Origin: a virus
Lineage: Duplodnaviria > Heunggongvirae > Uroviricota > Caudoviricetes
Length of the DNA stretch: 39,009 bases
Reading direction: 5' to 3' (one strand)
Virus record (IMG/VR): IMGVR_UViG_2540341091_000002
Span: 1-39,009 of that record
The notes under the pieces are model-generated. The model searched no databases. It was not told the origin of the DNA and was given only the letters and a program-made list of their open reading frames with translations. A program made the translations under genes and the position numbers. This document shows positions 1 through 19,506 of this stretch, one piece after another. Each line of letters starts with the position of its first letter. Within the stretch, counting starts at the first letter, position 1.

Positions 1-90
1 TTGCCTCCCCCCCGTTGATGGGTAAAATAGCCGCAATTTTTCGTTTTCAACAAGCGCGGCGCGATGCCGCTTACTCAAGAAGAAAGAATT

Positions 91-165
91 ATGACGTTGT
101 CTCCTTATTTGCAAGAGGTGGCGAAGCGCCGCACTTTTGCCATTATTTCTCACCCCAATAATTAA
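91..165 (+). pseudogene. prfC: 5' fragment of peptide chain release factor 3 gene (prfC) truncated at the prophage junction (attL side)
   Basis: ORF at 91 encodes [22 protein letters not shown], which I recognise as the RF3 N-terminus; it diverges to NN-stop exactly where the GTP-binding P-loop (DAGKTT) should follow. Recognition is from memory, not a search. Confidence 0.6.
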
Positions 166-319
166 GCCTAAATTAAAGCTCTTTTACTCTTTCAAAATCC
201 TTTCAGTTAATTGAGGTTGAGTAATATAACTCATTTAAATACATTTAGTTATGTGGCTTCTTTAATTGAAAATTCTTTCATGTAACTTTAAATCGATCTG
301 CTTGCTTTCATCAAAAATC

Positions 320-378
320 TGTACATATGCTTGTACATAATGTACAAAGCAGCAGAGGTGTTTTGCGATTTGTACAAG
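320..378. repeat. Four copies of TGTACA(W)(R) immediately upstream of the integrase start; possible regulator or integrase binding sites
   Basis: tgtacata at 320 and 332, tgtacaaa at 341, tgtacaag at 371; similar GTAC-core palindromes occur in the cI-cro operator region. Confidence 0.45.
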
Positions 379-385
379 GTGAGTA

Positions 386-1609
386 ATGGCGCTGTCTGAT
401 GCGTGGTTGCGTTCAGTCGTTGGAAAGGAACGTGATAAGGTTTTGGTTAAATCCGATCGTGATGGTCTGTCTGTCAGAGTATCACCGAAAGGTCGCGTAG
501 TGTTCCAATATCGTTATCAATGGGCAGGGAAAGGTGAGCGTCTTGATATCGGAACTTACCCGGCAACTGGATTAAAAGAGGCCAGAGAAGAAGTTATCCG
601 TCTCCGTGGTGAACTCGAGTCAAACCGTAATCCACGATTGGTCAAGCAGGCTGAAAAACGAAAAGCTACTGAAGCCATGACGGTAGAGTCTGTGATCCGT
701 GCCTGGTATGAAGCATATTGTGTAAAAAATAAAAAAGGCTCTGAACAGATACTCCGCTCGTTTGAGCTGCACCTGTTCTCTAAAATCGGGAATATCCCTC
801 ACGATGCAGCTACATTGCATGATTGGTTAGAAGTCCTGGAGCCTCTTAGCACTAAGACTCCAGCAATAGCAGACCGATTGCTAATTAACGCAAAGCAGGC
901 CCATGTCTGGGCGTATAAGAGAAAGCTCATTGAAACTCGCCCGCTGTCGGATATCACGGGTAAAGATATGGATATCCGTAAAGGTCAGAAGAAACGGTTT
1001 CTGACACATGATGAAATTAAAATCCTTTATGCTGCGATCGATGGTTCTCGAATGGTTCCTAAATACCGGGCCTTCATTAAACTATTGCTGCATTTTGGCT
1101 GCCGTAGTTCAGAGCTAATTACCGCCAGGGTGGACGATTTTGATTTCATTAATAAAGTATGGACTGTACCACCAGAACGACATAAGACTGGGGAGATAAC
1201 GGGCGAACCGCTAAAACGGCCCATTATTGAACCGGTTGAAGAGCTTATAAAGTACGCTATTTCTATGAACAATGGTTCCGATATGCTTTTTACTAAGGAA
1301 GGAAGCAGGGAACCCGTTGGTCGGACATCATTGCAGTCGCTGCCTTACAATTTAATGCAGTATGCATGGCGGCGTTTGGGGTATCAATTCCCTCATTGGT
1401 CTCTGCATGATTTGAGGCGAACAGCACGAACAAACTTTTCTGATCTTACTGCGCCTCATATCGCAGAAATAATGCTCGGTCATAAACTGCCGGGGGTATG
1501 GCAAGTTTATGACAAGAGTGATTATTTAGAAGAACAGCGTAAAGCCTACCAGGCATGGTGGGAGAGAGTTGAATCGATTGTTACTTGTTCTGGTTCAGAC
1601 ACCAACTGA
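386..1609 (+). CDS. int: Tyrosine site-specific integrase (P4-type family)
   Basis: 407 aa; N-terminal arm-binding-like region (VSPKGRVVFQYRYQWAGKGERLDIGTYP) and C-terminal catalytic region with HDLRRTARTNF and LGHK...VYD motifs typical of phage integrases; sits next to the disrupted host gene. Confidence 0.9.
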   Translation: MALSDAWLRSVVGKERDKVLVKSDRDGLSVRVSPKGRVVFQYRYQWAGKGERLDIGTYPATGLKEAREEVIRLRGELESNRNPRLVKQAEKRKATEAMTVESVIRAWYEAYCVKNKKGSEQILRSFELHLFSKIGNIPHDAATLHDWLEVLEPLSTKTPAIADRLLINAKQAHVWAYKRKLIETRPLSDITGKDMDIRKGQKKRFLTHDEIKILYAAIDGSRMVPKYRAFIKLLLHFGCRSSELITARVDDFDFINKVWTVPPERHKTGEITGEPLKRPIIEPVEELIKYAISMNNGSDMLFTKEGSREPVGRTSLQSLPYNLMQYAWRRLGYQFPHWSLHDLRRTARTNFSDLTAPHIAEIMLGHKLPGVWQVYDKSDYLEEQRKAYQAWWERVESIVTCSGSDTN

Positions 1610-1781
1610 CAGTTTGCATATTTTGAACGCAATAAAATATGACAGTCCGCTTTGAGCGAGGAGCGGATATATGATGTTTAGAAAACGCGCGATTTGCAGT
1701 TAAGCAATCTAAGTTACTGATGTACTATACTGGAACTGCTGGCCAGTTTGTGTTGAACACCATCATTATCACAATAAGGAA

Positions 1782-3035
1782 ATGAAAGTCGAAATGAATA
1801 CTAAACTTTTGGCCTATTTAAACAATGAGTTACATGGAGTGTGGATAGATAGTGAAAATCGTAATATCCACATAATACTTAAATCAAGCCTTCCTATAAT
1901 TAAATCCGTCTGGTCAGGAGCACCTATCCACTTTTTGGTAGGTTTATCTACTAAAAATATACTAGTGATTGGGATGTTGATTGAAGATAATGTCGATAAT
2001 CCATTTTTACTAGCCTATCCACCAAGAGAGGCAGATGAAATTAAAGGGCTGGATTTGTTATTGTCAGGCGCTTATGATGGTATTCTATTATCATTTTTTG
2101 ACTCGCATACAATGCGTGTTATGGACCTGAAAATAAAAGTTTCGGAAAATTTACCGTGTGAATGTTTAAAAAAATTTTGTGCTAATTCATATTCTCTCAA
2201 TTCAGGATTTAGGGAAGGTAATGAAGCAATGGATGAATTCTGCAACAATGCTTTGACTGGTAACGAGAAAATAATTAGTCTGCCACTAAGTGTAATCGAT
2301 AAAAAATCTTACCTAGCAAGTGTTCATGAACCAAACGATACCGTATTAACATATGAATTTAGCGTCAGTGAAAACGGCTCTGAGGGATATGAGCAGGAAG
2401 CTCTTATATACCATGCTTTGCGGCAGGTCTTTTCACCGGAGGAAGTGTTTTTTTCTCCAGATATTATTGAGGGTAATAAAAAAAGAGAACTAGTTGATAT
2501 TCTTATTGTAGAAAATGACTATGTATTATCTATACAGTCTAAAGCATCATCTTTGATTGAAATGGGTTTAAAATCTCATGAAAAGCTTTGTAGCATGTAT
2601 AAGAAAAAAGCATTGCAAGGGATCGATCAGGTTAAAGGCGTTATCCCAATTCTAAATAATGATGTGGTTATTAATTATGACGGGAGGGAATGCTTAATAA
2701 AGCGCAGAAAGGGTATTTATCATTTAGTGATAATCTCAGATCTTGTTTTAGAGAAAGAAGGTGCTGAAAAGATTTATAACGAAATTAGCAACCTTAAAGA
2801 GTCAAAAGGGGCGAAAGTTTTAGTTATGAGCCTTGAAGGTCTTGTAAATTTTATAAGACTATCAAGATTAAATAAAAGAATGTTTTGGGCAATGCTGGAG
2901 ACTAAATACAAGTTCAGCATAAAAAACCGTACAATTTTAATTAGAGATATCGACTCTAGCCAAGAGAATAATCTACCATTACTTGCCACTGATCAATACC
3001 TATCACTTCTTCGAGGTACGGGAAAATTAAAATAA
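1782..3035 (+). CDS. Hypothetical AT-rich cargo protein; possible PD-(D/E)xK-like nuclease core (candidate defence or abortive-infection gene)
   Basis: 417-aa ORF with AAGGA ribosome-binding site upstream; composition is markedly AT-rich (roughly one-third G+C by eye, against about half in flanking phage genes); residues ~200-255 (EQEALIYHAL...ELVDILIVENDYVLSIQSK) fit an alpha-beta-beta-beta D...QxK pattern; no family recognised. Confidence 0.6.
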   Translation: MKVEMNTKLLAYLNNELHGVWIDSENRNIHIILKSSLPIIKSVWSGAPIHFLVGLSTKNILVIGMLIEDNVDNPFLLAYPPREADEIKGLDLLLSGAYDGILLSFFDSHTMRVMDLKIKVSENLPCECLKKFCANSYSLNSGFREGNEAMDEFCNNALTGNEKIISLPLSVIDKKSYLASVHEPNDTVLTYEFSVSENGSEGYEQEALIYHALRQVFSPEEVFFSPDIIEGNKKRELVDILIVENDYVLSIQSKASSLIEMGLKSHEKLCSMYKKKALQGIDQVKGVIPILNNDVVINYDGRECLIKRRKGIYHLVIISDLVLEKEGAEKIYNEISNLKESKGAKVLVMSLEGLVNFIRLSRLNKRMFWAMLETKYKFSIKNRTILIRDIDSSQENNLPLLATDQYLSLLRGTGKLK

Positions 3036-3220
3036 ATTGTATCAATGATACTGTTGCCACGTATCGAGACTGGCTTATGAACGGAAGGGTTTTCCAGCAG
3101 TTCAGCGACCGGAGCTGCACATCGATGCCGGATTGTGCCTGCAATTATGTACTTGGCTAAGAGGTGCTGCTGGCTCTGGATAGAATAACCCTAACGTCCA
3201 AAGAGCGCGCATTTTCATGT

Positions 3221-3261
3221 AAAAAAATAAATAGCTTGTCTGCTCTTGATACAGAGCAGAC
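3221..3261 (-). terminator. Rho-independent terminator ending the leftward early operon
   Basis: Perfect 9-bp inverted repeat gtctgctct/agagcagac with 6-nt loop (3238-3261); on the minus strand it is followed by a T-rich run (plus-strand aaaaaaataaata at 3221-3233). Confidence 0.5.
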
Positions 3262-3320
3262 AGTCAGATCTGTTTGGCTTGTGCCATAGATGTGCCAGCT
3301 CACATTTGAGCTAATGTTTG

Positions 3321-3515
3321 TTACTCAATTACTCCTGCAAACCTGTATATCTTACGTGATGCCCATTTATTTGGGCAGGATTTAATATCAGGATCTGGAA
3401 AATCAGGCCGATATTTCTGACCAGTCCTCCGGTTTACACTGTTCCAGCGAAGCACCGTCGATATTGAAACGCCACAGAATTCGGCGACTTGTTTTGTTGT
3501 CATTAAGTTGTTCAT
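3321..3515 (-). CDS. Excisionase-like helix-turn-helix DNA-binding protein (AlpA/TorI/Xis type), probable recombination directionality factor
   Basis: Start taken at internal Met (MNNLMTTKQVAEFCGVSISTVLRW...), which forms an ATGA overlap with the upstream gene stop; small HTH protein at the end of the operon near int. Confidence 0.6.
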   Translation of the reverse strand: MNNLMTTKQVAEFCGVSISTVLRWNSVNRRTGQKYRPDFPDPDIKSCPNKWASRKIYRFAGVIE

Positions 3516-3859
3516 TGTTGACCCTCCTGTGGTTGTGCAGTTGAAAGACTCATGCCCGCGCGTTGTTGCCAGACGACCCAGCCGAGAGCCATATCCCACG
3601 CCATGTACTCGTTATCACCGTTTTTTGCTCTCCGACGATCGACTGTTTTACCGAAACGCTTTTCCATAAATAATTCATAGGCTGCGCGTTCATCTGGCTC
3701 AACTTCCAGAGATGCCAGTGCAATCCGTGCCAGTTCTAAATCATCTTCAAGCTCAGCGCGAATCTCAGCGAATGCACTCTGTGTTAAGGCGAACTCAATG
3801 CTCTGCACTTTATTCCGTGCGCGCTCAAGCAGTGCATGGTAGTTAATTTCGGTTGTCAT
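3512..3859 (-). CDS. Hypothetical prophage early protein
   Basis: 115-aa ORF translationally coupled to neighbours on both sides; acidic helical sequence; no family recognised with confidence. Confidence 0.55.
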   Translation of the reverse strand: MTTEINYHALLERARNKVQSIEFALTQSAFAEIRAELEDDLELARIALASLEVEPDERAAYELFMEKRFGKTVDRRRAKNGDNEYMAWDMALGWVVWQQRAGMSLSTAQPQEGQQ

Positions 3860-4734
3860 ACCCCTACCTCTTCGAATTTCAATACCAATTGATCACCCCA
3901 GATTTCACATGACTCTGAACACGAGCCGGTATCGAATCGCCTGGCCTGTACCATCGCCTGATACAAATTTCTGTAGTCGCTGTTGGCAGACATTCTGGCA
4001 ATTCCGTCAAGCGTCAGGTGACCACGGTACATAACGTCTTTACCTGTTCTGCGATGACCATCCCTGACGTGTTTGCCTGTAACCAGCTCATTAAAAACTC
4101 GCATCAGACCAGGTTCGTCTTTACATGCAAGCCCCAGCTTTTGCGTTGACTTTTTGATGCAGAAAACACAGTTCCCGAGATGCTCCGGGATTTGCAAATC
4201 AAAAGGTTGTTTTCGCCACCACCGGATAACATCCGACTTATCAAAATCTGACAGTTCGGCAAGATACCGGACGCCCGATTTCGGTTTCAGCCTACGGGGT
4301 TCGTCTGCACGAATACCCAGCCATGTGATGTAATTACCTCGCCCGAAATGGTTATCGCAGTATTTCGTGAAAGGGATGAGTTTTAGCCTGTCAGTACAGA
4401 ACGCGCCGCCGATGTATGGCGTGCCGTACTTTTTAACCATGTCCATAAACGGTTTAAGTACCGGCATTCGCGTCTGAATATCCTTTGGCTCCCATTCTGT
4501 ATAACCATTTGGCTGCCCAAGCTCAGGATTGATATCGACCTGCAACACAGTTAGTGGTATGCCCCAGAACTTCACAACCTCCCGAATAAAGCGGTATGTC
4601 AGCGGATGTTCGCAACCGGTATCCATAAAGATGTAGCAGACGTTATTGCCAGCCTTTCTTTGTTCTTCCATCAGGTGAACAAGATATGCAGATGTTCTCC
4701 CGCCGGAAAAACTAACTACATGAGTTATGCACAT
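3856..4734 (-). CDS. Phosphoadenosine phosphosulfate (PAPS) reductase family protein, PP-loop ATP pyrophosphatase fold
   Basis: 292 aa; N-terminal VVSFSGGRTS PP-loop-like motif typical of the PAPS-reductase family; 10-bp overlap with upstream gene. Confidence 0.75.
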   Translation of the reverse strand: MCITHVVSFSGGRTSAYLVHLMEEQRKAGNNVCYIFMDTGCEHPLTYRFIREVVKFWGIPLTVLQVDINPELGQPNGYTEWEPKDIQTRMPVLKPFMDMVKKYGTPYIGGAFCTDRLKLIPFTKYCDNHFGRGNYITWLGIRADEPRRLKPKSGVRYLAELSDFDKSDVIRWWRKQPFDLQIPEHLGNCVFCIKKSTQKLGLACKDEPGLMRVFNELVTGKHVRDGHRRTGKDVMYRGHLTLDGIARMSANSDYRNLYQAMVQARRFDTGSCSESCEIWGDQLVLKFEEVGV

Positions 4735-5261
4735 TTGCGTAACTCCGATAACTCGTTAAAACGTTCCATAAACATCCCGTAGGCATGTCCTGGTGCCAGT
4801 GGAATCACTTTGAACATCTCTGTTGCCGGGATACCTTCCAGTACAGGCCAGAAAGAGCCATCATCAAGCCCGAGATCGCGGCGTTCGGTTGCCAGCATAA
4901 TGAGATCGGCATATTTCACTGGCGTGCTCATAACAGGAGGTAACCCGTATTTCTCACGGATTACGGCGTCTATTTTTTCTTCCATCTGTTTATAGTCAGG
5001 AAGAAGGCGTTTCAGTGGCGCGGGGATGTCCTGACAATACGCTTCTGTTGCATCATGCATTAACGCTTCAAAAGCAAACTCCTCCGGAACCAGTTTGCTG
5101 CAAAGCACCGCATGTTGGGCGACGCTGTAGAAGTGTGAAAGATGACCGGCAAAGCGACAGATATTTGAAAGGGAAACTGCGATATCGTTAATCACGATGT
5201 CGTCTTTATTTATCCTGTCATAATAAAAATGCTTCCCGGAAAAAGTTTTAATAAATGACAT
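4725..5261 (-). CDS. yfdR: HD-domain phosphohydrolase (YfdR-like, 5'-deoxynucleotidase family)
   Basis: Start placed at MSFIK (GGAG 6 nt upstream), giving 178 aa; HD motif in ALMHDATEAY; length and neighbours match the CPS-53 yfdP-yfdQ-yfdR arrangement as I recall it. Confidence 0.65.
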   Translation of the reverse strand: MSFIKTFSGKHFYYDRINKDDIVINDIAVSLSNICRFAGHLSHFYSVAQHAVLCSKLVPEEFAFEALMHDATEAYCQDIPAPLKRLLPDYKQMEEKIDAVIREKYGLPPVMSTPVKYADLIMLATERRDLGLDDGSFWPVLEGIPATEMFKVIPLAPGHAYGMFMERFNELSELRKCA

Positions 5262-5389
5262 TTTGTTCTCCACTTTATATGCGCTGCACCGCGCTGAATT
5301 TTGGTTAAAGAAAACCCTCGCCATCAGGCGATTATTGAGTTAATTACGTTTCCATAAATGCCCCCGCAGGGGCATTTGCAGTAATGAAA

Positions 5390-6214
5390 TCAGGCGGTGA
5401 AAGTACCAATAAAGGTTTCTACTTTGCTGTCTTTGAATTTTTCAACAAGCAGATTACGAAATTCGTTAGCCATTTCTTCCTGTACTGCTTCCAGCTGAAT
5501 AATGCGCAGAACCAGTACAGGGCGATCACCAGTGATAATGCTGAGGCGTAATTTAAACGGACGTTCTTTCAGGCCTTCAAACGGAACGCATTTAAACTCA
5601 AATACTACTGGCATAATGTCTTTAGTTTTCGCTTCGACAGACTCCATCAGAGAGCGTTTGCCGCTGAAGTCATTGTCTTCAAAATCAGCGGTCTGGTTTG
5701 CTTCAATCGTGATTTTACGGACCGCCGCAGCCGCTTTTGTTGCCTGAATGGCGTCACCATTAGCATCAAAGCCCACAAGGTAGTCGGCCCAGTCTTCAAT
5801 CCATTCTGCCAGTGACTTCTGGGAGTTACGCTCGCCGTTAACAGACAACAGGGCAGAGAACGGTGCTGTCTTTTTCAGTTTGAGAGTGGCGGTGTTATCT
5901 GCGTGACCTGGTTCATCAATAGTACCCAGGTTAAGCACACTGACGGCACGCATATTATCGGCATCGATAAAGCAGCGGGTGCCTTCATCTGCAAGAACTT
6001 TAGAATAACGGGTAAAGTCATCGATGCTGGCAGTGGAAAGCGCACCACGGAAACGGAAGCGATTTAAATTAAATTTTTCCAGATCATGAATGCGGAAATT
6101 CTCAGGCAATGCCACAGCATCGGCACCAATCTTACTGATAATTTCATTAACACCCTGAGCAGAAATAAGGGCATGGATTTGATTAATTGCGGTTGCGTCT
6201 AAGTTCTGAGACAT
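5390..6214 (-). CDS. yfdQ: YfdQ-like prophage protein (DUF2303 family), function unknown
   Basis: 274 aa, same length and position as CPS-53 YfdQ between YfdP-like and YfdR-like genes; assignment from recollection of the family, not a search. Confidence 0.6.
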
Positions 6215-6278
6215 AATAAGTCCTCACTATATAAAGATATTCAGTGATGAGATAAATAATCAGTTTATTAGAACGATA

Positions 6279-6641
6279 TTAACGACCTGCTGCGCGGAGT
6301 TTTCCGTCAGGTTCACCGGCAAGAGTCAGTAATTGTCCTTGGTCTTCCTGCAGAATAGTCAGGCGACCACCGCGATTGACATACATCGGCGTTTCGGTGG
6401 TGTCTTCTTCGGAAATTTTCCCGCGGTTAGTCGGGCGAACATATGAGAGTTTGTGTTTGATTTTTACACGGTTCTCATCAAACGGTTCGATTTCCAGGTT
6501 GAGCGAGACCTTACCTTTGGTTTTCGTGTTCATCACACCGGAAGCGACTTCACTGAGAACAGCGCCGATTTTGGTTTCAAATACGCCGCCGTCCAGCTCC
6601 CCGATAAATGCCTGCACATCAGTACTGCGTTCGCTAGCCAT
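6279..6641 (-). CDS. yfdP: YfdP-like prophage protein, function unknown
   Basis: Start placed at MASERSTD (AGGAG upstream), giving 120 aa; the longer track ORF has a Cys-rich, improbable N-terminal extension. Confidence 0.55.
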   Translation of the reverse strand: MASERSTDVQAFIGELDGGVFETKIGAVLSEVASGVMNTKTKGKVSLNLEIEPFDENRVKIKHKLSYVRPTNRGKISEEDTTETPMYVNRGGRLTILQEDQGQLLTLAGEPDGKLRAAGR

Positions 6642-7350
6642 TTTGCTGCTCCTCATCATATCGACCCCGCAAGGTCGGTTGGTTTCTCCACAAAACAGAG
6701 AAGAACACCAGCGGTGGCAGCCGCCCGGATGGATTGGGTTATGAGCCCGTCGTCCGGTGATGCCCTTCTCTGTTTTGTAAAAAGAGCGGTACCAGCCGGA
6801 AGCAAGTGTACAAACTGGTACCGCCAAAGCAGTGGCTGTTGTGGTGACCGGTGCTGATCTCCGGCTTGCGGTTATTTCAGACTCTCACGGGCGTTTAATT
6901 GCCCCGCCGAACAGCTCTTTTCCGCAATAGCTGCAATGTCTTTCGCGCATCAGCCTGCGCATTCACCACAACGCTGAGAGCATTGCCGGTGTCCGAATCG
7001 AACGGACCTTTTCCCTGCCCAACCCTCCCATCTGAATGGGACTGTCTGGAATTGAACCAGCACTTATGCCTTGCTCGTCAATGCTCTCATCGTTGCGTCC
7101 TGGTCTCTTCCCAAGCGTCAAACCGAATCGCCACGCTGGTTAGGCGTCTTATCAGCATCCTCATTGACTTGCACATTCCGGCTACCTGGTTTGTTTGCCC
7201 GAGCAAGGAGTGGATTATCCCCTTTAACGTCCCCAGACCGCTAACGACGCATGTGCCATACGCCGTGTTACAACCAAATTTTGTTTGAATCTTGCCTGCC
7301 TCATGTTTCTTTTGGATACATTATGTATCTCATAGGTACATTGTCAAGTA

Positions 7351-7373
7351 TAAAAAAACCTGCCGAAGCAGGT
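7351..7373 (-). terminator. Rho-independent terminator downstream of the repressor gene
   Basis: Hairpin acctgc-cgaa-gcaggt (7358-7373) followed on the minus strand by a run of seven T (plus-strand aaaaaaa at 7351-7357). Confidence 0.6.
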
Positions 7374-7386
7374 TCATAAATATTGA

Positions 7387-8061
7387 TTAGGCCTTTATTG
7401 TGTATCTTCTTGGTTTTCCCGAGAAAATCACTGTACCAATTATAGAGCAATTACCGTTAATCTTAATGTAAGGCTCAGGCCAGTTTGGGTTTAATGCTTT
7501 GAGATAACGCTGTGTTCCATCTTCTATCAACCGCTTGAAGGTGGTTTCGCCTGAATCGTGCATCAATGCAATAACGTCGTCACCGTGGCAGGCAGGGACT
7601 TCAGGATCAACAAAAATCATGTCTCCCGGGCGGTACTCATCAATCATTGAATCACCAATCACCCGCAAGATATAAGTCATTTCGCCACAGGGTACAGGGC
7701 AGGGATAAGTTTCTGCTGTGCTCAAATCAACCTCAGAATAGCCAACTTCTTTCCATGCTCCGGCCTGTACCCATGATATGACAGGGACTAACGTTATTTG
7801 TTTGTTAGTGATTGAAACATCAGGTTTTTTTGTGATGTTCGTGGTCTGGTGTTCTTGATCAAGCCATCCGACAGGCAGGTCGAAACATTTTTCGATGTGC
7901 CTTGCCATGCTGTCACCGATATTTTTAGTAGCACCATCTCCCATAAACCTGCTGGTCTGGGTTGGCTCGCGATCAATCATGGTGGCAAAGGAAGAATTCC
8001 CGCCAACACCATCTCTCAGTTTTCTGGCGTTAGACCGCCGGATGTCATGGACTGTTTTCAT
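7387..8061 (-). CDS. cI: CI-like prophage repressor (N-terminal HTH plus C-terminal S24 LexA-type autopeptidase domain)
   Basis: 224 aa; C-terminal VIGDSM...FKRL gives the Ser/Lys dyad context of S24 peptidases; divergent from a Cro-like gene; no Shine-Dalgarno before the ATG, consistent with a leaderless PRM-type transcript. Confidence 0.85.
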   Translation of the reverse strand: MKTVHDIRRSNARKLRDGVGGNSSFATMIDREPTQTSRFMGDGATKNIGDSMARHIEKCFDLPVGWLDQEHQTTNITKKPDVSITNKQITLVPVISWVQAGAWKEVGYSEVDLSTAETYPCPVPCGEMTYILRVIGDSMIDEYRPGDMIFVDPEVPACHGDDVIALMHDSGETTFKRLIEDGTQRYLKALNPNWPEPYIKINGNCSIIGTVIFSGKPRRYTIKA

Positions 8062-8151
8062 AACGAAATTAAAACCTTTGTACCGATAGGGTACAAGTAT
8101 CTTGAAGGTTCATCTCAATCATGTAATATGTATATCGGAGGTACATATTGT
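8062..8151. promoter_or_regulatory. Divergent promoter/operator region between the repressor and Cro-like genes
   Basis: Palindrome ttgtacc-gatag-ggtacaa at 8078-8096 plus related GTAC-core motifs (catgtaatatgtat, ggtacatattgtat); a related motif (ggtacattgtcaag) lies downstream of cI near 7335. Confidence 0.5.
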
Positions 8152-8352
8152 ATGAAAGCGTATTGGGACTCTTTAACCAAAGAACAGCAGGGCGAGTTGG
8201 CCGGAAAAGTTGGCTCAACACCAGGCTATTTACGGCTGGTTTTCAATGGTTATAAAAAAGCCAGTTTTGTGCTGGCTAAAAAACTTGAGCAATGCACGTC
8301 AGGTGCAATTACGAAATCTGACTTAAGACCGGATATCTATCCGAAAGATTAA
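8152..8352 (+). CDS. Cro-like / YdaS-like small HTH regulator
   Basis: 66-aa ORF starting at ATG 8152 with GGAGG upstream; divergent from cI; basic HTH-like sequence. Confidence 0.65.
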   Translation: MKAYWDSLTKEQQGELAGKVGSTPGYLRLVFNGYKKASFVLAKKLEQCTSGAITKSDLRPDIYPKD

Positions 8353-8383
8353 CAGAACACCTTCAATTTTTAACCACAGAACG

Positions 8384-8947
8384 ATGAGGCTAACCGTGGG
8401 TAAGCATCACTGGAAAGTAGAAAAACAGCCTGAGTGGTACGTGAAAGCTGTCAGAAAAACTATCGCGGCGTTGCCGGGGGGGTACGCTGAAGCTGCTGAG
8501 TGGCTAGATGTAACAGAGAACGCTTTATTCAACCGCCTTCGTGCAGATGGCGATCAGATTTTCCCGCTGGGATGGGCAATGATTTTACAGCGCGCGGCTG
8601 GCACTCACTACATTGCGGATGCTGTCGCACAGTCTGCTGGTGGGGTGTTTGTATCGCTTCCTGAAATTGAGGAAGTAGAGAACGCCGATATAAACCAGCG
8701 CCTGCTGGAAGTCATCGAACAGATCGGGAGTTACTCAAAGCAGATTCGTTCGGCAATCGAAGATGGGGTAGTGGAGCCACACGAGCAGACAGCAATTAAT
8801 GATGAGTTGTATCTGTCAATTTCGAAGCTCCAGGAGCATGCAGCACTGGTCTACAAAATCTTTTGCGCTCCAGAAAAGAGTGACGCCCGCGAGTGTGCAG
8901 CTCCGGGCGTCGTGGCGTTTTGTGTCTGTGGAGAAACTAACGCATGA
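8384..8947 (+). CDS. Hypothetical early regulatory protein (possibly CII-like or YdaT-like)
   Basis: 187-aa ORF directly downstream of Cro-like gene; call is by position only. Confidence 0.45.
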   Translation: MRLTVGKHHWKVEKQPEWYVKAVRKTIAALPGGYAEAAEWLDVTENALFNRLRADGDQIFPLGWAMILQRAAGTHYIADAVAQSAGGVFVSLPEIEEVENADINQRLLEVIEQIGSYSKQIRSAIEDGVVEPHEQTAINDELYLSISKLQEHAALVYKIFCAPEKSDARECAAPGVVAFCVCGETNA

Positions 8948-9780
8948 ACAGTTTAACGGCAAATAACCGTTTGTCGCAACAGCTGGTGGTCAGCGTCGCT
9001 GAACACCTGTTGTTACGGCATGAATGCAGATTACCAAATCTCCTGGCTGTAAGTAACCACAGAGAACTTTACCTGACTGTGGGGGGCGAGTTGTGCAGGA
9101 ACTTAACCGCTGGTTTCGTGACGGAAGAGGACTTTATGTTCATGTTATTCGTTGGGAGCCAGAAACACAGCGCGTTATCTATCTTCGCAAAGACTACCCG
9201 CATGAGTGCTTTAGTCCTTTGTGGAAATTCAAGCGTGATTTTGTTGAGTGTGAAGGACCACCAGCACATTGATTCTGCCATTCCGGGACGTTACACTGTT
9301 CAGGCACCTTATAAAGCGGGTGCCGGGATTGGCGTCCTGGAATTGATCAAGGCGATATATGACGCGCCAGCGTCCTTTTTATCGTCCGCATTTGCTCACA
9401 TCAAAGTTATGGTGGGCTGGGCGGGGGCATCGAAAGATGCGCCGGTTTCCTTGATCACCGGTTACGCCAACCCCGTTCAGTTCACCACCAGCGAAATTGG
9501 CGTTTCCGGTGGTGGAAGTATTTCACCGATCAAGGAGGCTGCCATCATGGCTACTGTCCCAGCCCTCACTCGTCTGAATGATGAAGACTTACATAAACTC
9601 AGTTATGTAACAACTGCACTACGTGCTCTGCGCAAGGTAACTCTTTCGGATCCGCAGGCACATCAGGTTCTGGTAGAAACCCTTCTTAACTTGCAAGCTG
9701 AACGTATTCGTCTGGCGGATAAGGCTAATTTTCATATTCACCGTCTCCTGAATATCAGCGGAGGGCATCGTCATGCTTAA
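8944..9780 (+). CDS. Hypothetical protein; gene structure uncertain (possible frameshift or overlapping small gene at 9093-9272)
   Basis: 278-aa ORF with ATGA coupling to upstream gene; its first third looks compositionally atypical, while an alternative-frame GTG ORF (9093-9272) reads more protein-like. Confidence 0.35.
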   Translation: MNSLTANNRLSQQLVVSVAEHLLLRHECRLPNLLAVSNHRELYLTVGGELCRNLTAGFVTEEDFMFMLFVGSQKHSALSIFAKTTRMSALVLCGNSSVILLSVKDHQHIDSAIPGRYTVQAPYKAGAGIGVLELIKAIYDAPASFLSSAFAHIKVMVGWAGASKDAPVSLITGYANPVQFTTSEIGVSGGGSISPIKEAAIMATVPALTRLNDEDLHKLSYVTTALRALRKVTLSDPQAHQVLVETLLNLQAERIRLADKANFHIHRLLNISGGHRHA

Positions 9781-10009
9781 TCCGTTGCTCCTCAACATTT
9801 ACCGTTTATTTCAGCGTAAAAAAATATCAACACCCACAGTTGGGCAGTGGTACACCACGCCAGCAGGGCATGTTCTACGTGTCAGCCTGGTTGACCGTGA
9901 ATGTCAGAAGGTGATTTGTGAACCGCTGGGCCGTAATTACCGCGTCAGTATGCCGCTTATAGCCTTTCGCTCCGGAAAAAACATGAAGCATCTCGGAGGT
10001 GCAGCATGA
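9773..10009 (+). CDS. Hypothetical small protein
   Basis: 78-aa ORF translationally coupled between neighbouring genes. Confidence 0.4.
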   Translation: MLNPLLLNIYRLFQRKKISTPTVGQWYTTPAGHVLRVSLVDRECQKVICEPLGRNYRVSMPLIAFRSGKNMKHLGGAA

Positions 10010-10824
10010 GTATGGAGCTGATGGTTAAAGCGATGAAAATTCGAGTGGGTAATCCATTGCGAAAACTGGTTCTGATCAAGCTGGCTGATAATGCCAGCGA
10101 TCAGGGTGAGTGCTGGCCCAGCTACCAGCATATTGCTGACCAGTGCGAGATTAGCAAACGTTCTGTGATGAATCATATTGCGGCCCTTTGTGAGTCCGGG
10201 CTGGTAAAAAAAGTCACCCGGAAAGGTGAAAAAGGTAACTCAAGTAATATCTATCTCCTTCATCTGGATGGTGCAGGAGATTCACTAGGGGGTAGTGCAA
10301 ATAATTCACTATCTGGTGCAGCAAATTCACCAGGTAGTGCAGGAGTTGCACCAGGGGGTAGTGCAGGAGATTCACCCAGAACCAGTCACTCTTTTGAACC
10401 AGTCAAAGAACCAGTCAATGAACCAATAGCTGTTGGTGCATCTGCTGATGAGTCTGTGCGAGTTCGTTCAAACCGACCGGAATACTCTCCGGAGTTTGAG
10501 CAGGCATGGCTGGCATATCCCAAACGTGCTGGTGGCAATTCAAAATCTGCAGCCTTCAAAGCCTGGAAAGCCCGTTTGAATGAGGGGGTAAACCCCGAAA
10601 CCATGCTGGAAGGTGTGAAACGCTATGCGGGCTGGGTATCTGCGATGGGTAACAGCGGCACACAATTTGTGAAACAGGCTGTCACGTTCTTTGGTCCGGA
10701 TCGTCATTTCGAAGAATCCTGGGAAGTTCCTGCGGTATCTGCAGCCAGACGTGAGGACCCGTACTTCAAAGCCAGTTACGACAACGTGGACTACAGCCAG
10801 ATCCCGGCAGGATTCAGGGGGTGA
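10006..10824 (+). CDS. Replication initiation / replisome-organiser protein (N-terminal HTH, low-complexity linker, DnaT-like C-terminal region)
   Basis: 272 aa; N-terminal winged-helix-like segment, Gly/Ser/Ala-rich linker, C-terminal region resembling phage replication-protein tails; contains iteron-like DNA repeats. Confidence 0.65.
   Translation: MSMELMVKAMKIRVGNPLRKLVLIKLADNASDQGECWPSYQHIADQCEISKRSVMNHIAALCESGLVKKVTRKGEKGNSSNIYLLHLDGAGDSLGGSANNSLSGAANSPGSAGVAPGGSAGDSPRTSHSFEPVKEPVNEPIAVGASADESVRVRSNRPEYSPEFEQAWLAYPKRAGGNSKSAAFKAWKARLNEGVNPETMLEGVKRYAGWVSAMGNSGTQFVKQAVTFFGPDRHFEESWEVPAVSAARREDPYFKASYDNVDYSQIPAGFRG
10261..10420 (+). repeat. Iteron-like direct repeats inside the replication gene (putative origin)
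   Basis: About five copies of ggtagtgcagg(a)gattcac-like units (10270-10376) followed by three copies of gaaccagtca (10379-10420). Confidence 0.5.
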
Positions 10825-11315
10825 TCATGAGTCTTTTGAATGAAGTTCAGAAATTCATTGAAGCCCATCCGGGGTGTACTTCCGGAGACATTGCGGATGC
10901 TTTTGCAGGTTACTCACGGCAGCGCGTTCTGCAGTCAGCAAGCAAGTTACGTCAGAGTGGGCGTGTGGCTCACCGTTGTGAAGGAGATACACGCAGACAT
11001 TTCCCACGCCTGACTGAGAGAGCGCAGGAGCCGGAACCACAACCAGTTCGTGAAACCAGACCTGTGCGCAATTTCTATGTCGGCACTAACGACCCGCGGG
11101 TGATTTTGTGCCTGACCCGCCAGGCGGAAGAACTGGAGTCCAGGGGCTTATACCGTCGTGCTGCAACGGTGTGGATGGCGGCATTCCGTGAAAGCCACTC
11201 CCAGCCAGAACGAAATAATTTTCTGGCGCGTCGTGAACGGTGTTTACGGAAAAGCAATAAGCGGGCTGCATCAGGTGAAGAGTGGTATCTGTCAGGGAAT
11301 TACGTGGGGGCTTAA
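10821..11315 (+). CDS. Hypothetical regulator, possibly PerC-like transcriptional activator with N-terminal winged helix
   Basis: 164 aa; C-terminal AEELESRGLYRRAATVWMAAF resembles the conserved PerC-family segment as I recall it. Confidence 0.45.
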   Translation: MIMSLLNEVQKFIEAHPGCTSGDIADAFAGYSRQRVLQSASKLRQSGRVAHRCEGDTRRHFPRLTERAQEPEPQPVRETRPVRNFYVGTNDPRVILCLTRQAEELESRGLYRRAATVWMAAFRESHSQPERNNFLARRERCLRKSNKRAASGEEWYLSGNYVGA

Positions 11316-11968
11316 TGAGTAATAAATATTGCCAGGCGCTGGTGGAACTGCGGAACAAACCAGCCCATGAACTGAAGGAAGTGGGCGATCAGTGGCGCAC
11401 GCCGGATAACATTTTCTGGGGAATTAACACCCTGTTTGGTCCGTTTGTTCTGGATCTGTTCACTGACGGTGATAACGCCAAATGTGCCGCGTATTACACG
11501 GCGGAAGACAACGCGCTGGCACATGACTGGTCAGAACGTCTTGCGGAGCTTAAAGGTGCTGCCTTTGGTAATCCCCCATACAGCCGCGCCAGTCAGCATG
11601 AGGGGCAATACATCACCGGCATGCGTTACATCATGAAACATGCCAGTGCCATGCGTGATAAGGGCGGGCGCTATGTTTTCCTGATCAAAGCTGCCACCAG
11701 CGAAGTGTGGTGGCCGGAAGATGCGGACCATATTGCTTTTATTCGCGGGCGTATTGGTTTTGAACTGCCTGCCTGGTTTATCCCGAAGGATGAGAAGCAG
11801 GTGCCGACAGGCGCTTTCTTCGCTGGTGCTATTGCTGTTTTCGACAAGACCTGGAAGGGACCGGCAATCAGCTACATCGGGCGCGATGAACTTGAGGCAT
11901 GTGGTGAGGCGTTTCTGGCGCAGGTTCGCCAGCAGGCAGAAAAACTTGTCAGGGAGATGGCGGCATGA
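11315..11968 (+). CDS. DNA N6-adenine methyltransferase (phage Dam-type, orphan)
   Basis: Start at MSNKY (TAATG overlap with upstream stop); FGNPPYS catalytic motif of N6-adenine methyltransferases. Confidence 0.8.
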   Translation: MSNKYCQALVELRNKPAHELKEVGDQWRTPDNIFWGINTLFGPFVLDLFTDGDNAKCAAYYTAEDNALAHDWSERLAELKGAAFGNPPYSRASQHEGQYITGMRYIMKHASAMRDKGGRYVFLIKAATSEVWWPEDADHIAFIRGRIGFELPAWFIPKDEKQVPTGAFFAGAIAVFDKTWKGPAISYIGRDELEACGEAFLAQVRQQAEKLVREMAA

Positions 11969-12291
11969 CGACGTTAACTCAATGCCAGCAGCAGGTGCTG
12001 GATATGCTGATTTCTTACCAGCAAGAGCGTGGCTTTCCGCCAACCAATCAGGAGGTGGCAACCATGCTGGGATACCGTTCAGTGAATGCAGCGGTGGAGC
12101 ATCTTCGCGCACTGGAGAAAAAAGGCGTCATCACGATAAAGCGTGGCGTGGCCCGGGGTATCACTCTTCATACCGCGGTGAAGGACGACGACAGCGAGGC
12201 GGTCGGGATTATCCGCGCACTGCTTGCCGGTGAGGAAAACGCCAGGCTGCGTGCAGCCCACTGGTTACATGAGAGGGGCCTGAAAGTATGA
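11965..12291 (+). CDS. LexA N-terminal-like winged-helix DNA-binding protein (no peptidase domain)
   Basis: 108 aa; QQQVLDMLISYQQERGFPPTNQEVATMLGYRSVNAAVEHLRALEKKGVI parallels the LexA DNA-binding domain; ATGA-coupled to the methyltransferase. Confidence 0.7.
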   Translation: MTTLTQCQQQVLDMLISYQQERGFPPTNQEVATMLGYRSVNAAVEHLRALEKKGVITIKRGVARGITLHTAVKDDDSEAVGIIRALLAGEENARLRAAHWLHERGLKV

Positions 12292-12677
12292 AGCTGATCC
12301 TGCCTTTCCCGCCCAGCGTGAACACGTACTGGCGACACCCCAACAAAGGGGCGTTTGCAGGTAAGAGCCTGATAAGCGCGGCGGGGCGCAAATTCCAGAG
12401 CGCGGCGTGTGCAGCAATAGTTGAGCAGTTACGTCGTCTGCCGAAACCAACGTCGGCACCTGCTTCAGTGGAGATCGTGTTGTTTCCTCCGGATAACCGG
12501 ATCCGCGATCTGGACAACTATAACAAGGCGCTGTTTGACGCCCTGACCCACGCGGGTGTGTGGGAAGACGACAGACAGGTGAAAAGAATGCTGGTGGAGT
12601 GGGGACCGGTTATCCCGAAAGGGAAGGTCGAGATCACTATCAGTAAGTACGAGAAAACGGCGGGTGCAGCCGCCTGA
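12288..12677 (+). CDS. rusA: RusA-family Holliday junction resolvase
   Basis: 129 aa; N-terminal LPFPPSVNTYWRH and conserved DLDNYNKALFDALTHAGVWEDD acidic motif typical of RusA. Confidence 0.85.
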   Translation: MKLILPFPPSVNTYWRHPNKGAFAGKSLISAAGRKFQSAACAAIVEQLRRLPKPTSAPASVEIVLFPPDNRIRDLDNYNKALFDALTHAGVWEDDRQVKRMLVEWGPVIPKGKVEITISKYEKTAGAAA

Positions 12678-12696
12678 TTAAGAGGAGAAACGAAGT

Positions 12697-13506
12697 ATGA
12701 ATAATCTGATGGTTATTGATGGTATTGAAGTTCGTCGTGATGCTTATGGGCGTTACAGCCTGAACGATCTGCACAGGGCAGCCGGGGGAGAACAAAAAAA
12801 CCGCCCGAAATACTGGCTCTCCAATAAGCAAACCTGTGAATTGATTGAACAACTTTTCACCGAGGGTGGAATTCCGCCTCTGGAACAAAATCAACCAGTT
12901 AGCGTCATTAATGGCGGAAATAACCAGGGGACGTATGTCTGCAAAGAACTGGTGTATGCCTATGCAATGTGGATCAGCCCGTCATTCCATCTGAAGGTGA
13001 TCCGTACTTTCGATATGGTAACCAGCGCACCGGAAAAATTATCCGGACAGGCTGCTGACAAGATGCAGGCTGGTGTGATTCTGCTGGACTTTATGCGTCG
13101 GGAGTTAAACCTGTCTAACTCTTCAGTGCTTGGTGCCTGTCAGAAACTCCAGGAGGCTGTTGGCTTACCGAATCTGGCACCGCGCTATGCCATTGATGCT
13201 CCTGCTGATGCACACGATGGCTCAAGTCGCCCGACACTGTCACTGAGTGCACTGCTGAAACAGTATGGTATCCGCCTGACGGCTAATCAGGCATATCACC
13301 AGATGGTGAAGCTGGGGATCGTCGAGCAGCGCGAACGATACAGCCGTACCGGGATTAACAACATCAAAAAATTCTGGTCGCTGACGGCGAAAGGCTGCAT
13401 GTTCGGCAAGAACATCACCAGTCCCGCAAATCCGCGCGAGACGCAGCCGCATTTCTTCGAATCCCGATTCCCTGAGCTGTTAAAGCTGCTCGATACCGTT
13501 CATTGA
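12697..13506 (+). CDS. KilA-N domain protein (antirepressor-like)
   Basis: 269 aa; N-terminal IDGIEVRRDAYGRYSLNDLHRAAGG segment typical of KilA-N/Bro-N proteins; paralogous N-terminus to the 17686 gene. Confidence 0.65.
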   Translation: MNNLMVIDGIEVRRDAYGRYSLNDLHRAAGGEQKNRPKYWLSNKQTCELIEQLFTEGGIPPLEQNQPVSVINGGNNQGTYVCKELVYAYAMWISPSFHLKVIRTFDMVTSAPEKLSGQAADKMQAGVILLDFMRRELNLSNSSVLGACQKLQEAVGLPNLAPRYAIDAPADAHDGSSRPTLSLSALLKQYGIRLTANQAYHQMVKLGIVEQRERYSRTGINNIKKFWSLTAKGCMFGKNITSPANPRETQPHFFESRFPELLKLLDTVH

Positions 13507-13507
13507 G

Positions 13508-14503
13508 GTGACCGTGAGAGCACTACTGACCCCTGAAATTGCCCCGCGTATGGGGATCGTATTGTTCAGGCCAGGTTCAGAGCTGATGCCCCTGTTTATG
13601 CAGGGGCGTGTCCTGCTGGAGCCTGAGCCAGAACGTTATTCATCTTTCGCCAGTGGTGCCGTTCCGGCGGCATCACAACCGCTGGCGGATGATCCTGCCG
13701 TTCGGGCCGTGTTCCGCAATGAGGCAGTGATCCGTCGTGCTGGTGGCGTGGAATGTCTTGAAAGCTGGTTACTTCGTGAAAAAGGCTGCCAGTGGCCTCA
13801 TTCCGACTGGCACAGCGAGAACATGACCACAATGCGACACGCTCCGGGCGCAATCCGTCTGTGCTGGCACTGCGATAACCAGCTGCGCGATCAGTTCACG
13901 GAACGGCTGGAATCAATGGCAACGGATAACTGTGCCCGCTGGGTGTTGTCTGTAGTCCGTCGGGATCTCGGTTTTGATGATAACCATGCCGTGACAATGC
14001 CGGAACTGTGCTGGTGGCTGATTCGTAATGACCTGGCGGATGCCTTACCTGAAAGCGCAGCCCGTAAGGCGCTGAGATTACCGAAACCTGTTGTGCCGTC
14101 TGTCACCCGGGAAAGTGACCTTGTGCCTTCGGTTCCTGCCACCAGCATCATCCAGGATAAAGCGAAAAAGGTGCTGGCGCTGAAAGTGGATCCGGAGTCG
14201 CCGGAGTCTTTTATGTTACGCCCAAAACGCCGCCGCTGGGTTAATGAAAAGTACACGCGCTGGGTTAAGACACAGCCGTGTGCATGTTGTGGAAAGCCTG
14301 CTGATGATCCCCACCACCTGATAGGCCACGGTCAGGGTGGAATGGGTACAAAAGCGCATGACCTCTTTGTGTTGCCTTTGTGCAGAAAGCATCACGACGA
14401 GCTGCATGCGGATACCGTGGCATTTGAAGAAAAGTATGGCTCTCAGCTGGAGCTGATATTTCGTTTTATCGATCGTGCGCTGGCAATTGGCGTATTGGCG
14501 TAA
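13508..14503 (+). CDS. DUF968-type prophage protein with C-terminal HNH-like Cys/His motif
   Basis: 331 aa; C-terminal CACCGKPADDPHHL...LCRKHHDELH cluster; commonly found upstream of Q in lambdoid prophages. Confidence 0.6.
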   Translation: MTVRALLTPEIAPRMGIVLFRPGSELMPLFMQGRVLLEPEPERYSSFASGAVPAASQPLADDPAVRAVFRNEAVIRRAGGVECLESWLLREKGCQWPHSDWHSENMTTMRHAPGAIRLCWHCDNQLRDQFTERLESMATDNCARWVLSVVRRDLGFDDNHAVTMPELCWWLIRNDLADALPESAARKALRLPKPVVPSVTRESDLVPSVPATSIIQDKAKKVLALKVDPESPESFMLRPKRRRWVNEKYTRWVKTQPCACCGKPADDPHHLIGHGQGGMGTKAHDLFVLPLCRKHHDELHADTVAFEEKYGSQLELIFRFIDRALAIGVLA

Positions 14504-14516
14504 GTGGAGAACGAGC

Positions 14517-15269
14517 ATGAACCTTGAAGCCTTACCAAAATATTACTCCCCAAAATCTCCAAAATTGAGCGATGACGCACCGGCGACAGGCTCAGGTGGT
14601 TTAACGATTACGGATGTGATGGCTGCGCAGGGGATGGTGCAGTCGAAAGCACCGCTTGGGTTTGCCTTATTCCTGGCAAAAGTTGGTGTTCAGGATCCTC
14701 AATTTGCGATTGAAGGTCTGCTCAATTACGCGATGGCACTGGATAACCCGACATTGAACAAATTGAGTGAAGAAACCCGGTTACAGATCATCCCTTACCT
14801 TGTGAATTTTGCCTTTGCTGATTATTCCAGGTCTGCGGCAAGTAAGGCTCGCTGTGAGCATTGTGCTGGTACTGGATTTCATAATGTATTGCGCGAAGTG
14901 GTGAAACACTCCAGAAGCGGGGAATCTGTTATCAAGGAAGAGTGGGTGAAGGAACTATGTCAGCATTGCCATGGTAAGGGAGAAGTCAGCACAGCGTGCA
15001 GAGGGTGTAAGGGTAAAGGTATTGTCCTGGATGAAAAAAGAACCCGGCTTCATGGTGTGCCTGTTTATAAGATTTGTGGGCGTTGCAATGGCAACCGGTT
15101 TAGCCGTTTACCAACCACACTGGCGCGGCATCATGTCCAGAAGCTGGTACCGGATCTGACGGATTATCAGTGGTACAAAGGATATGCAGATGTCATTGAT
15201 AAACTGGTGACAAAGTGCTGGCAGGAAGAAGCATATGCTGAGGCGCAATTAAGAAAAGTGACGAGATAA
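14517..15269 (+). CDS. Q: Late-gene antitermination protein Q
   Basis: Start at MNLEAL with GGAGA upstream; four CxxC pairs (CEHCAG, CQHCHG, CRGCKG, CGRCNG); positioned just upstream of a promoter/terminator pair and the lysis genes. Confidence 0.8.
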   Translation: MNLEALPKYYSPKSPKLSDDAPATGSGGLTITDVMAAQGMVQSKAPLGFALFLAKVGVQDPQFAIEGLLNYAMALDNPTLNKLSEETRLQIIPYLVNFAFADYSRSAASKARCEHCAGTGFHNVLREVVKHSRSGESVIKEEWVKELCQHCHGKGEVSTACRGCKGKGIVLDEKRTRLHGVPVYKICGRCNGNRFSRLPTTLARHHVQKLVPDLTDYQWYKGYADVIDKLVTKCWQEEAYAEAQLRKVTR

Positions 15270-15295
15270 ATGATTTTCGCCGAAGATGGCGACAT

Positions 15296-15340
15296 GATTC
15301 TTGCATTTTTCAAAAAATCTGGTTAGGATTTTCCTAACGA
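15296..15340 (+). promoter_or_regulatory. Candidate late promoter (PR-prime equivalent) and Q-utilisation region
   Basis: ttgcat and a taggat-like element with near-17-bp spacing between Q stop and the downstream terminator; assignment positional and weak. Confidence 0.3.
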
Positions 15341-15378
15341 TGGGCTTTGTATGTCTGCCGTTAACGAAATCATAACAA

Positions 15379-15400
15379 ACCTCGCTTCGGCGGGGTTTTT
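15379..15400 (+). terminator. Rho-independent terminator downstream of Q (tR-prime equivalent)
   Basis: Stem cctcgc / gcgggg closing a ttcg tetraloop, followed by ttttt. Confidence 0.6.
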
Positions 15401-15419
15401 GCTTTTCTGGAGGTCAATA

Positions 15420-15677
15420 ATGCAGGGCGAAAAGCAGCAGCCATATTTTTTTAACCCTGGTATGACTGTTGAACAGCTTGAAGACTGGCTGGAGCAGCAA
15501 AAGCTTCATCTAAGCCGCTATAACCGTCTGGTAAAAGAAAAAGCAGAGCTTGAAGAACGGCTCAGTGATATTTCTGTGGAAATTGAACGAATGTCTGCTG
15601 GTGGTTTTAACGGAAAGTTGAGTTTCCCTTGGGAGTCAAGTTCGCTTCTGAGAAATCATCAACAGGGTAGTGTTTGA
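15420..15677 (+). CDS. Small late-expressed hypothetical protein (coiled-coil-like), cargo position between Q terminator and lysis genes
   Basis: 85-aa ORF from ATG 15420 with GGAGG 6 nt upstream; the longer track ORF would span the terminator. Confidence 0.5.
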   Translation: MQGEKQQPYFFNPGMTVEQLEDWLEQQKLHLSRYNRLVKEKAELEERLSDISVEIERMSAGGFNGKLSFPWESSSLLRNHQQGSV

Positions 15678-15756
15678 CTGAAATAATAAACAGAATGTCA
15701 TTAAGATCCCTTCCCCTCATATCTGAGAGGACCAACAGCAATTAAGAGGGGGCTAA

Positions 15757-16143
15757 ATGTCCGATCCGATTTCCGGTACTGGGCTGGCTGGTGGTGCCCT
15801 GACGGGGGCCAGTGTTTATGGACTGCTGACCGGAACTGATTACGGCGTTGTATTTGGCGCATTTGCAGGGGCTGTATTCTACATAGCAACAGCAGCAGAT
15901 CTGAGTGCATCGCGCCGACTGGCATATTTTATCGTGTCATATATTGCCGGGATTCTTTGCTCTGGGTTGGTTGGCTCCAAGCTGGCGAACTTGACCGGAT
16001 ACAGTGATAAACCTCTGGATGCTATTGGTGCCGTAATCGTCTCTGCTTTAGCCGTTAAAATCCTGACGTTCCTGAATAATCAGGATATCGGCTCGCTGGT
16101 GGCGCTCATAACGCGCCGGGGAGGTTCAGGTGGAGCTAAATGA
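15757..16143 (+). CDS. Putative holin (Gly/Ala-rich multi-pass membrane protein)
   Basis: 128 aa with several hydrophobic segments and charged C-terminus; strong RBS (agagggggc); first gene of the lysis cassette. Confidence 0.6.
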   Translation: MSDPISGTGLAGGALTGASVYGLLTGTDYGVVFGAFAGAVFYIATAADLSASRRLAYFIVSYIAGILCSGLVGSKLANLTGYSDKPLDAIGAVIVSALAVKILTFLNNQDIGSLVALITRRGGSGGAK

Positions 16144-17483: not shown

Positions 17484-17515
17484 TTTTTTTGCAAATCACA
17501 AAGTCCATTTAATGA

Positions 17516-17538
17516 GCCTCGCGATGCGGGGCTTTTTT
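17516..17538 (+). terminator. Rho-independent terminator after the lysis cassette
   Basis: 7-bp stem gcctcgc / gcggggc with 3-nt loop followed by tttttt. Confidence 0.65.
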
Positions 17539-18882: not shown

Positions 18883-18908
18883 TAATAATTCTCAACTGTC
18901 TGAGGGGA

Positions 18909-19493: not shown

Positions 19494-19506
19494 AAATCAT
19501 CGAATC

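Follow-up and report, generated by a model that had tools for sequence, protein, structure and literature searches.

prfC, the gene for release factor 3 (RF3), is a recognised integration locus of Stx phages (PMC10132054). Ogura et al. reported in 2007 that an Stx1 phage at prfC changes the N-terminus of RF3 and removes the native ribosome-binding site and promoter; by their account, transcription and translation of prfC in a lysogen of this kind were unknown, and the gene is not essential (PMC2323221). Bobay et al. listed prfC among the genes disrupted by prophages, and lepA is a prophage hotspot in Salmonella (PMC3603311). The integrases of the cdtI phage and of SXT have been placed in one prfC-targeting cluster (PMC8138268), the SXT/R391 family being defined by an integrase nearly identical to IntSXT (PMC2791158). 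According to a passage of PMC8409611 that cites Hochhut and Waldor (1999), SXT supplies both a promoter and an N-terminus for prfC. For the elements that integrate in dusA, a lacZ fusion revealed that the gene is still expressed, at a lower level (PMC8409611).

This integration site is already in the literature, and so are the altered RF3 N-terminus, the loss of the native expression signals and the relationship to SXT. Here, we compare one further locus with these systems. The window (the whole stretch of viral DNA analysed, 39,009 nucleotides) begins with a junction of this kind: positions 1-385 are very probably an attL, left by a temperate phage that belongs to the cdtI/Stx1 'prfC' type and whose integration regenerates a hybrid prfC at attR. 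The coordinates of all the features are listed in Table 1.

Table 1. Features of the window, with position, strand and basis of the assignment.
Feature	Position	Strand	Basis
yjjG-prfC intergenic region, host	1..90	+	100% identity to K-12
prfC stub at attL (22 native codons, then phage Asn-Asn-stop)	91..165	+	ORF and K-12 alignment
attL core, 14 bp, ATTATTTCTCACCC (prfC codons 18-21 and two bases of codon 22)	142..155		four-way alignment
P' arm of the phage attachment site, 230 bp	156..385	+	also in 33 phage records and attP
TGTACA(A/T)A repeats, candidate arm-type integrase sites	320-327, 332-339, 341-348, 369-376		motif scan
Tyrosine integrase, 407 aa, P4/SXT class	386..1609	+	Pfam
Prophage body: cargo ORF, early region with CI-like repressor, lysis, terminase, portal, capsid, contractile tail, baseplate, tail fibres	1610..37769		Pfam and FAM21845 annotation
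Cargo ORF, 417 aa, 34% G+C, between int and the putative excisionase	1782-3035	+	ORF
Candidate excisionase, small helix-turn-helix protein, weak assignment	3321..3599	-	HTH_17 E = 9e-4
PAPS-reductase-family protein	3856-4734	-	partial PADLOC match to SspD (E = 3e-15, N-terminal half only)
isrK	9304-9380	+	Rfam 59.6 bits, above gathering score
C4 antisense RNA	9405-9492	+	Rfam 82.3 bits, above gathering score
IS2 copy, in the tail-fibre region, cut by the window end	37770..39009	-	NCBIfam; terminal repeat read
IS2 TnpB	37781-38686	-	NCBIfam 725 bits
IS2 TnpA	38644-39009	-	NCBIfam 276 bits

The left junction and the prfC stub

The yjjG-prfC spacer of K-12, together with nucleotides 1-65 of prfC, is 100% identical to window positions 1-155 (E = 3e-74), and this stretch is matched in 5,424 of the 5,426 complete E. 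coli genomes. The stop codon of the K-12 yjjG directly precedes the base equivalent to position 1. From the ATG at 91, the reading frame runs through 22 native RF3 codons (91-156), continues with AAT AAT TAA and ends at 165. Host identity ends at 155/156, where the window reads CACCC/CAATAA and K-12 reads CACCC/GGACGC (the slash marks the break), that is, at the His-Pro directly before the DAGKTT of RF3. With presence defined as a match to at least 80% of window 1-385, attL was found in 700 of the 5,426 genomes.

These observations bear out what the sequence-only reading had proposed, namely a prophage with an integrase directed at the start of the prfC coding sequence, leaving the first 22 codons of RF3 intact before the frame diverges and stops. 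The alignment of 91-165 with the start of prfC, which it had put forward as a check, was run and holds, and the same junction recurs in the 700 genomes. An intact prfC immediately upstream would have spoken against it, but in all related genomes the upstream gene is yjjG, and the remainder of prfC lies past the far end of the prophage, as had been presumed, in every related genome inspected. Its description of prfC as truncated at attL holds for the stub; the gene itself is not left truncated, because attP carries a replacement 5' end that yields a full-length hybrid at attR in the relatives.

In IAI39 and FAM21845, PGAP labels the same stub a pseudogene and incomplete; it should not be mistaken for a decaying gene. 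The best sigma-70-like match upstream of the native prfC, a putative promoter by consensus match only, consists of TTGCCT (1-6), a 16-nt spacer and TAAAAT (23-28). A simple scan predicted no terminator between the stub and int.

The attachment core and the phage arms

When the attB of K-12, the window and two lysogen right junctions are aligned, ATTATTTCTCACCC is the sole block common to all four sequences. This 14-bp core is identical across attB, attL, attR and attP. With one mismatch allowed, it occurs once in the window, against 0.02 occurrences expected by chance, and neither attR nor a second core copy was found in the 39 kb; the attR of this genome is not visible because the window ends inside IS2.

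The integrase gene and the P' arm (window 156-1700) are matched by 33 phage records at 95-98% identity over 93-97% of this stretch, including cdtI, Ayreon (propagated on K-12), 2H10, and Stx1a and Stx2c phages. In the free genomes of cdtI and Ayreon, attP has the order phage arm, ATG and 16 codons, ATTATTTCTCACCC, CAATAATTAAGCC..., int, and thus corresponds to the left side of attR, the core and the right side of attL. Because attP is seen directly in these two phages, the scheme in which attP and attB give attL and attR could be read from the sequence. The base left of the core differs between them: it is of the host type in the Ayreon attP (TTTGCCATT...; L093 2480-2500), as against TTTGCAATT in cdtI (L094 2480-2500), and it extends the identity of Ayreon with attB to 20 bp. 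This base could be the footprint of a past cycle of integration and excision, or a plain mutation.

Four of the six TGTACAWA matches of the whole 39-kb window are clustered within 57 bp (320-376), just 5' of int. Several copies are also present in the P arm, in attR as in attP, two of them directly 5' of the hybrid ATG. The N-terminal domain of the integrase may bind these repeats as arm-type sites.

The right junction and the hybrid prfC in related lysogens

The right junction was inspected in eight lysogens (IAI39, FAM21845, EC25, O145:H28 RM12581, O103:H2 12009, ETEC-2265, an O111:H8 strain and FY10), and the phage P arm adjoins prfC in 699 of the 5,426 E. coli genomes. The prfC at attR is 1,587 nt long and carries no pseudogene flag in all eight; in the seven where it was translated (all but IAI39), it encodes 528 residues with one terminal stop. 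Its start is identical in the eight lysogens and consists of the phage-derived ATGACAAGCCTTTTGGCCGCAGAGGTAGCGAAAAGAAGAACCTTTGCA followed by the core, so that the upstream region, the ATG and the first 16 codons are supplied by the phage. The N-terminus of the hybrid RF3 is accordingly MTSLLAAE..., versus MTLSPYLQE... in the native protein. At least 1,000 contigs carry each of four hybrid RF3 variants, among which is the UniProt entry RF3_ECOK1.

Two further features of these junctions were recorded. In FY10 (L091 944-1800), IS26 removed nearly the whole prophage, leaving 95 bp of the phage arm and an intact hybrid prfC, a 'scar' that fixes the phage-type RF3 N-terminus in a phage-free strain. 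In IAI39 (L002 48650-48700), and also in L086-L090, a perfect LexA-box-like CTGT-N8-ACAG lies 5' of a divergent DinI-like gene; this gene borders the phage arm at attR and is frameshifted in several lysogens.

The integrase would thus recombine the 14-bp core of attP with its exact counterpart in the host prfC (codons 18-22). Integration would split the gene: attL would retain the native promoter region and 22 codons, in the form of a dead 24-codon stub pointing into int, and the rest of prfC would be moved about 40 kb away, to attR. There, the diverged prfC start that attP holds left of the core would rebuild a complete 528-codon hybrid, and excision would restore the native prfC. In the present genome, the expected signature of attR would be ...TGTACATAATCAA(A/C)GAGACAACAATTATGACAAGCCTTTTGGCCGCAGAGGTAGCGAAAAGAAGAACCTTTGCAATTATTTCTCACCCGGACGCCGGTAAG, in frame with the full prfC and followed by osmY. 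The same attR is presumably present in this genome and the prophage presumably still excisable.

Coding constraint and probable expression of the hybrid gene

Just left of the core, a comparison of 27 nt between phage and host shows eight differences, spread over six codons and all synonymous. These 27 nt encode Glu8-Ala16 in the phage copy and Glu9-Ala17 in the native prfC. Only one in 2,000,000 random variants with eight substitutions kept the peptide. As 8 of the 27 nt differ and the peptide is unchanged, the constraint is on the peptide and not on the DNA. The first seven to eight residues, the part that is changed in the hybrid, also vary in sequence and length among the prfC of other genera, whereas a 10-residue segment is invariant among them. 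In these alignments, the synonymous pattern points to constraint at the protein level at some stage, not necessarily today. It could have been inherited from a foreign prfC once captured by the phage, and not result from selection within the phage.

No strong sigma-70 consensus promoter was found in the phage arm 5' of the hybrid ATG, and shuffled sequence gave candidates as good as those of the arm. The most promising of the weak candidates, an extended -10 element (TGcTATGCT), is 82 nt 5' of the ATG and is identical in all eight lysogens (FY10, which has retained it, included). The sequence-only reading had suggested that expression of the host prfC may depend on phage-supplied sequence, and a phage-supplied start is indeed present in the related genomes. 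From the intact gene in the sampled lysogens, the coding constraint on the cassette and the SXT and dusA precedents, we infer that the hybrid prfC is transcribed from a phage promoter and yields a working RF3.

A more elaborate arrangement can be envisaged, in which integration swaps promoters, the phage leader driving prfC in the lysogen while int falls behind the native prfC promoter. In the free phage, the prfC-like leader (a presumed promoter, an ATG and a 23-codon ORF) is located directly 5' of int on the same strand. We consider such a swap improbable; if it did occur, the att cassette would be both a gene-repair device and an integration-state switch for int and RF3, and about 13% of E. 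coli strains would be on phage-controlled RF3 with an altered N-terminus.

The complete 528-codon frame, free of a pseudogene flag in 8 of 8 sampled lysogens, is difficult to reconcile with the view that integration merely inactivates a dispensable prfC and that the in-frame phage sequence at attR is incidental. We regard this view as very unlikely, even though prfC is non-essential and its expression in a lysogen was not established by Ogura et al. (PMC2323221), Bobay et al. classed it as disrupted (PMC3603311) and no strong promoter is predicted 5' of the hybrid ATG. An unexpressed gene would be expected to have decayed in some of the 700 genomes, eight nucleotide differences in 27 would not be expected to leave the amino acids without a single change, and FY10 has kept the hybrid prfC with 95 bp of phage upstream DNA despite the near-total loss of the prophage. 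Moreover, SXT, which has the same core, is described in the passage of PMC8409611 cited above as supplying a working promoter and N-terminus.

The prfC-like stretch of attP might also be att homology or core-binding sequence only, its coding capacity being a by-product without selection on RF3. Some similarity to attB is expected there, because the core-type sites of tyrosine integrases flank the crossover; however, left of the core the DNA has diverged (8 of 27 nt) and the peptide is kept exactly, which is a protein-level signature, and the similarity reaches back 48 nt from the core to an in-frame ATG. A start codon, the frame and the conserved peptide are likewise preserved in the SXT cassette, which otherwise looks unrelated. 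There is in our opinion very little chance that att homology is the whole explanation.

If the hybrid is a working gene, as we prefer to read it, about one in eight E. coli genomes would make RF3 from phage-supplied start signals and with a changed N-terminus. The intact hybrid genes argue against the 'disrupted' label of PMC3603311, and the prfC of such strains should not be scored as disrupted.

The prophage body and the end of the window

The element had been called a prophage from the sequence alone, and this was confirmed by the Pfam matches to a CI-like S24 repressor, large terminase, portal, HK97-type capsid and tail sheath in the window, as well as by a homologous prophage in FAM21845. 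The latter, 40 kb long, is the closest relative among complete genomes (93% of window 1-25000 at 98.3%); it is flanked by yjjG and prfC, and its annotated genes extend from int to the tail fibres by way of the lysis, head and contractile tail genes. No conjugative transfer genes were found among the ORFs scanned or in the FAM21845 prophage. That the junction arose in assembly or through an IS-mediated rearrangement, or that the element is an SXT/R391 conjugative element and not a phage, as the IS2 at the window end and the use of the prfC site by SXT/R391 might suggest, can be practically dismissed, the identical junction being present in 700 independent complete genomes, attP in packaged phage genomes, the integrase being 39% identical to the SXT-type Int, and the window having phage head, tail and lysis genes without transfer genes.

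The IS2 copy truncates a minus-strand tail-fibre gene (37257-37796), and the window stops at the start codon of TnpA. A defective prophage is possible, as is a right end rearranged by IS2.

The ORF at 1782-3035 gave no matches in Pfam, NCBIfam or PADLOC and looks like a cargo or defence slot. Other prfC prophages have defence genes at their ends (a dCTP deaminase, Dsr1, and a reverse transcriptase with a SLATT protein). The gene of the PAPS-reductase-family protein lies within a yfdP-yfdQ-yfdR-like block shared with genes of the CPS-53 prophage of K-12. Finally, isrK and the C4 antisense RNA stand side by side in the early region, as an RNA-based immunity or anti-repressor control module of the P1/P7 and Gifsy kind.

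The integrase and its relatives

The integrase contains the Pfam domains PF13356 (Arm-DNA-bind_3, DUF4102), PF22022 (Phage_int_M) and PF00589 (the catalytic domain). Its R-K-H-R-H-Y catalytic set is intact, and the residues concerned (R240, K267, H341, R344, H366 and Y375) are invariant or nearly so in an alignment of 17 relatives. The gene is about 96-98% identical in nucleotides to the int of cdtI and of Ayreon. By its domains, by the identity of int and the arm, and by its core, the int-attP module belongs to the cdtI/Stx-type prfC-integrating group, in the SXT cluster of the IntSXT subgroup. The candidate excisionase matches the Gifsy-1 Xis model with E = 7e-4, below the cut-off of that model.

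A scan for integrase relatives, with one genome per species, led to 80 loci. At 32 of them, int is found 199-238 bp 3' of a prfC stub on the same strand; the genera include Pantoea, Xenorhabdus, Serratia, Pseudomonas, Acinetobacter and Methylomonas, in addition to Burkholderiaceae and others. At another 19, the stub is that of lepA and ends ...IRNFSIIAHID, the integrase being 44-49% identical to that of the window and located 193-222 bp 3' of the stub. In the one lepA-stub locus that was inspected, the upstream region is rseC-lepA. The lepA stub ends ...MKNIRNFSIIAHID/; lepA encodes a translational GTPase paralogous to RF3, and these codons are the homologues of the prfC core. The integrases of this group have apparently switched between corresponding sites in the paralogous genes prfC and lepA, a shift for which no statement was found in the literature searched.

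The remaining 29 loci have no prfC stub, lepA stub or tRNA upstream; loci without either stub include some in Xenorhabdus/Photorhabdus (L027, L028, L035 and L044) and in Acinetobacter (L080, L081 and L083). Scans for tRNA genes were empty in the window and 45 related loci, so the integrase group is not tRNA-targeting at those loci.

Comparison with known systems

The dusA elements (for example IMEVchUSA3) likewise integrate at the 5' end of a conserved gene and supply it with a promoter and an N-terminus. They use another target gene and another integrase lineage; the analogy is one of design only. The prophages at the 5' end of lepA, which we take to be of the Gifsy-1 type, also have a different target gene, and their junction falls about 5 nt further into the gene than at prfC.

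The comparison with SXT/R391 could be made on E. coli cq9, which carries an SXT/R391-type element at the same place in prfC. The SXT-type Int of cq9 and the integrase of the window are 39% identical over their full length, far from the near identity to IntSXT that defines the family, and in place of conjugative transfer genes and the SetCD/SetR backbone the window has phage genes. SXT/R391 are conjugative elements, whereas the element described here is a phage. The core is nevertheless the same as that of the cq9 element, and SXT/R391 elements target it at the 5' end of prfC, their attP reading ATCATCTCTCACCC against ATTATTTCTCACCC in attB. The cq9 attL reads ...GCCATTATTTCTCACCC/TGATGCC and its attR ...GCTATCATCTCTCACCC/GGACGCC, which places the exchange within TCTCACCC. 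Both systems have homologous integrases and arm repeats of the GTACAAA type, GTGTACAAA being repeated in both arms of the cq9 element.

Like the phage, the cq9 element brings its own start codon, with 17 codons, and gives a full-length prfC of 1,590 nt. The SXT-type cassette begins MANQDFLNEIN... and the protein has 529 residues, compared with 528 for the phage type. The SXT-type int lies 1.3 kb from the core and points towards attL, whereas the phage int is 230 bp away and points inward. The SXT type was found at prfC in 7 of the 5,426 E. coli genomes, versus 700 for the phage type. The 39% identity to IntSXT was not retained on its own as proof of specific kinship; relatives at 44-49% target lepA. 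The shared core and arm repeats are a stronger link to SXT than the identity of the integrases.

The described phages at prfC are the closest. The int gene and P' arm of cdtI, the O103:H2 Stx1 phage, the CC119 Stx1a/Stx2c phages and Ayreon are 95-98% identical in nucleotides to those of the window. The rest of the genome is mosaic, and the window copy carries an IS2. The window encodes an HK97-type head and a contractile tail, without stx or cdt, whereas cdtI and the prfC Stx phages are long-tailed lambdoid phages. Phage cdtI, the O103:H2 Stx1 phage and Ayreon share their core, and the prfC start that they supply, with the prophage type of the window.
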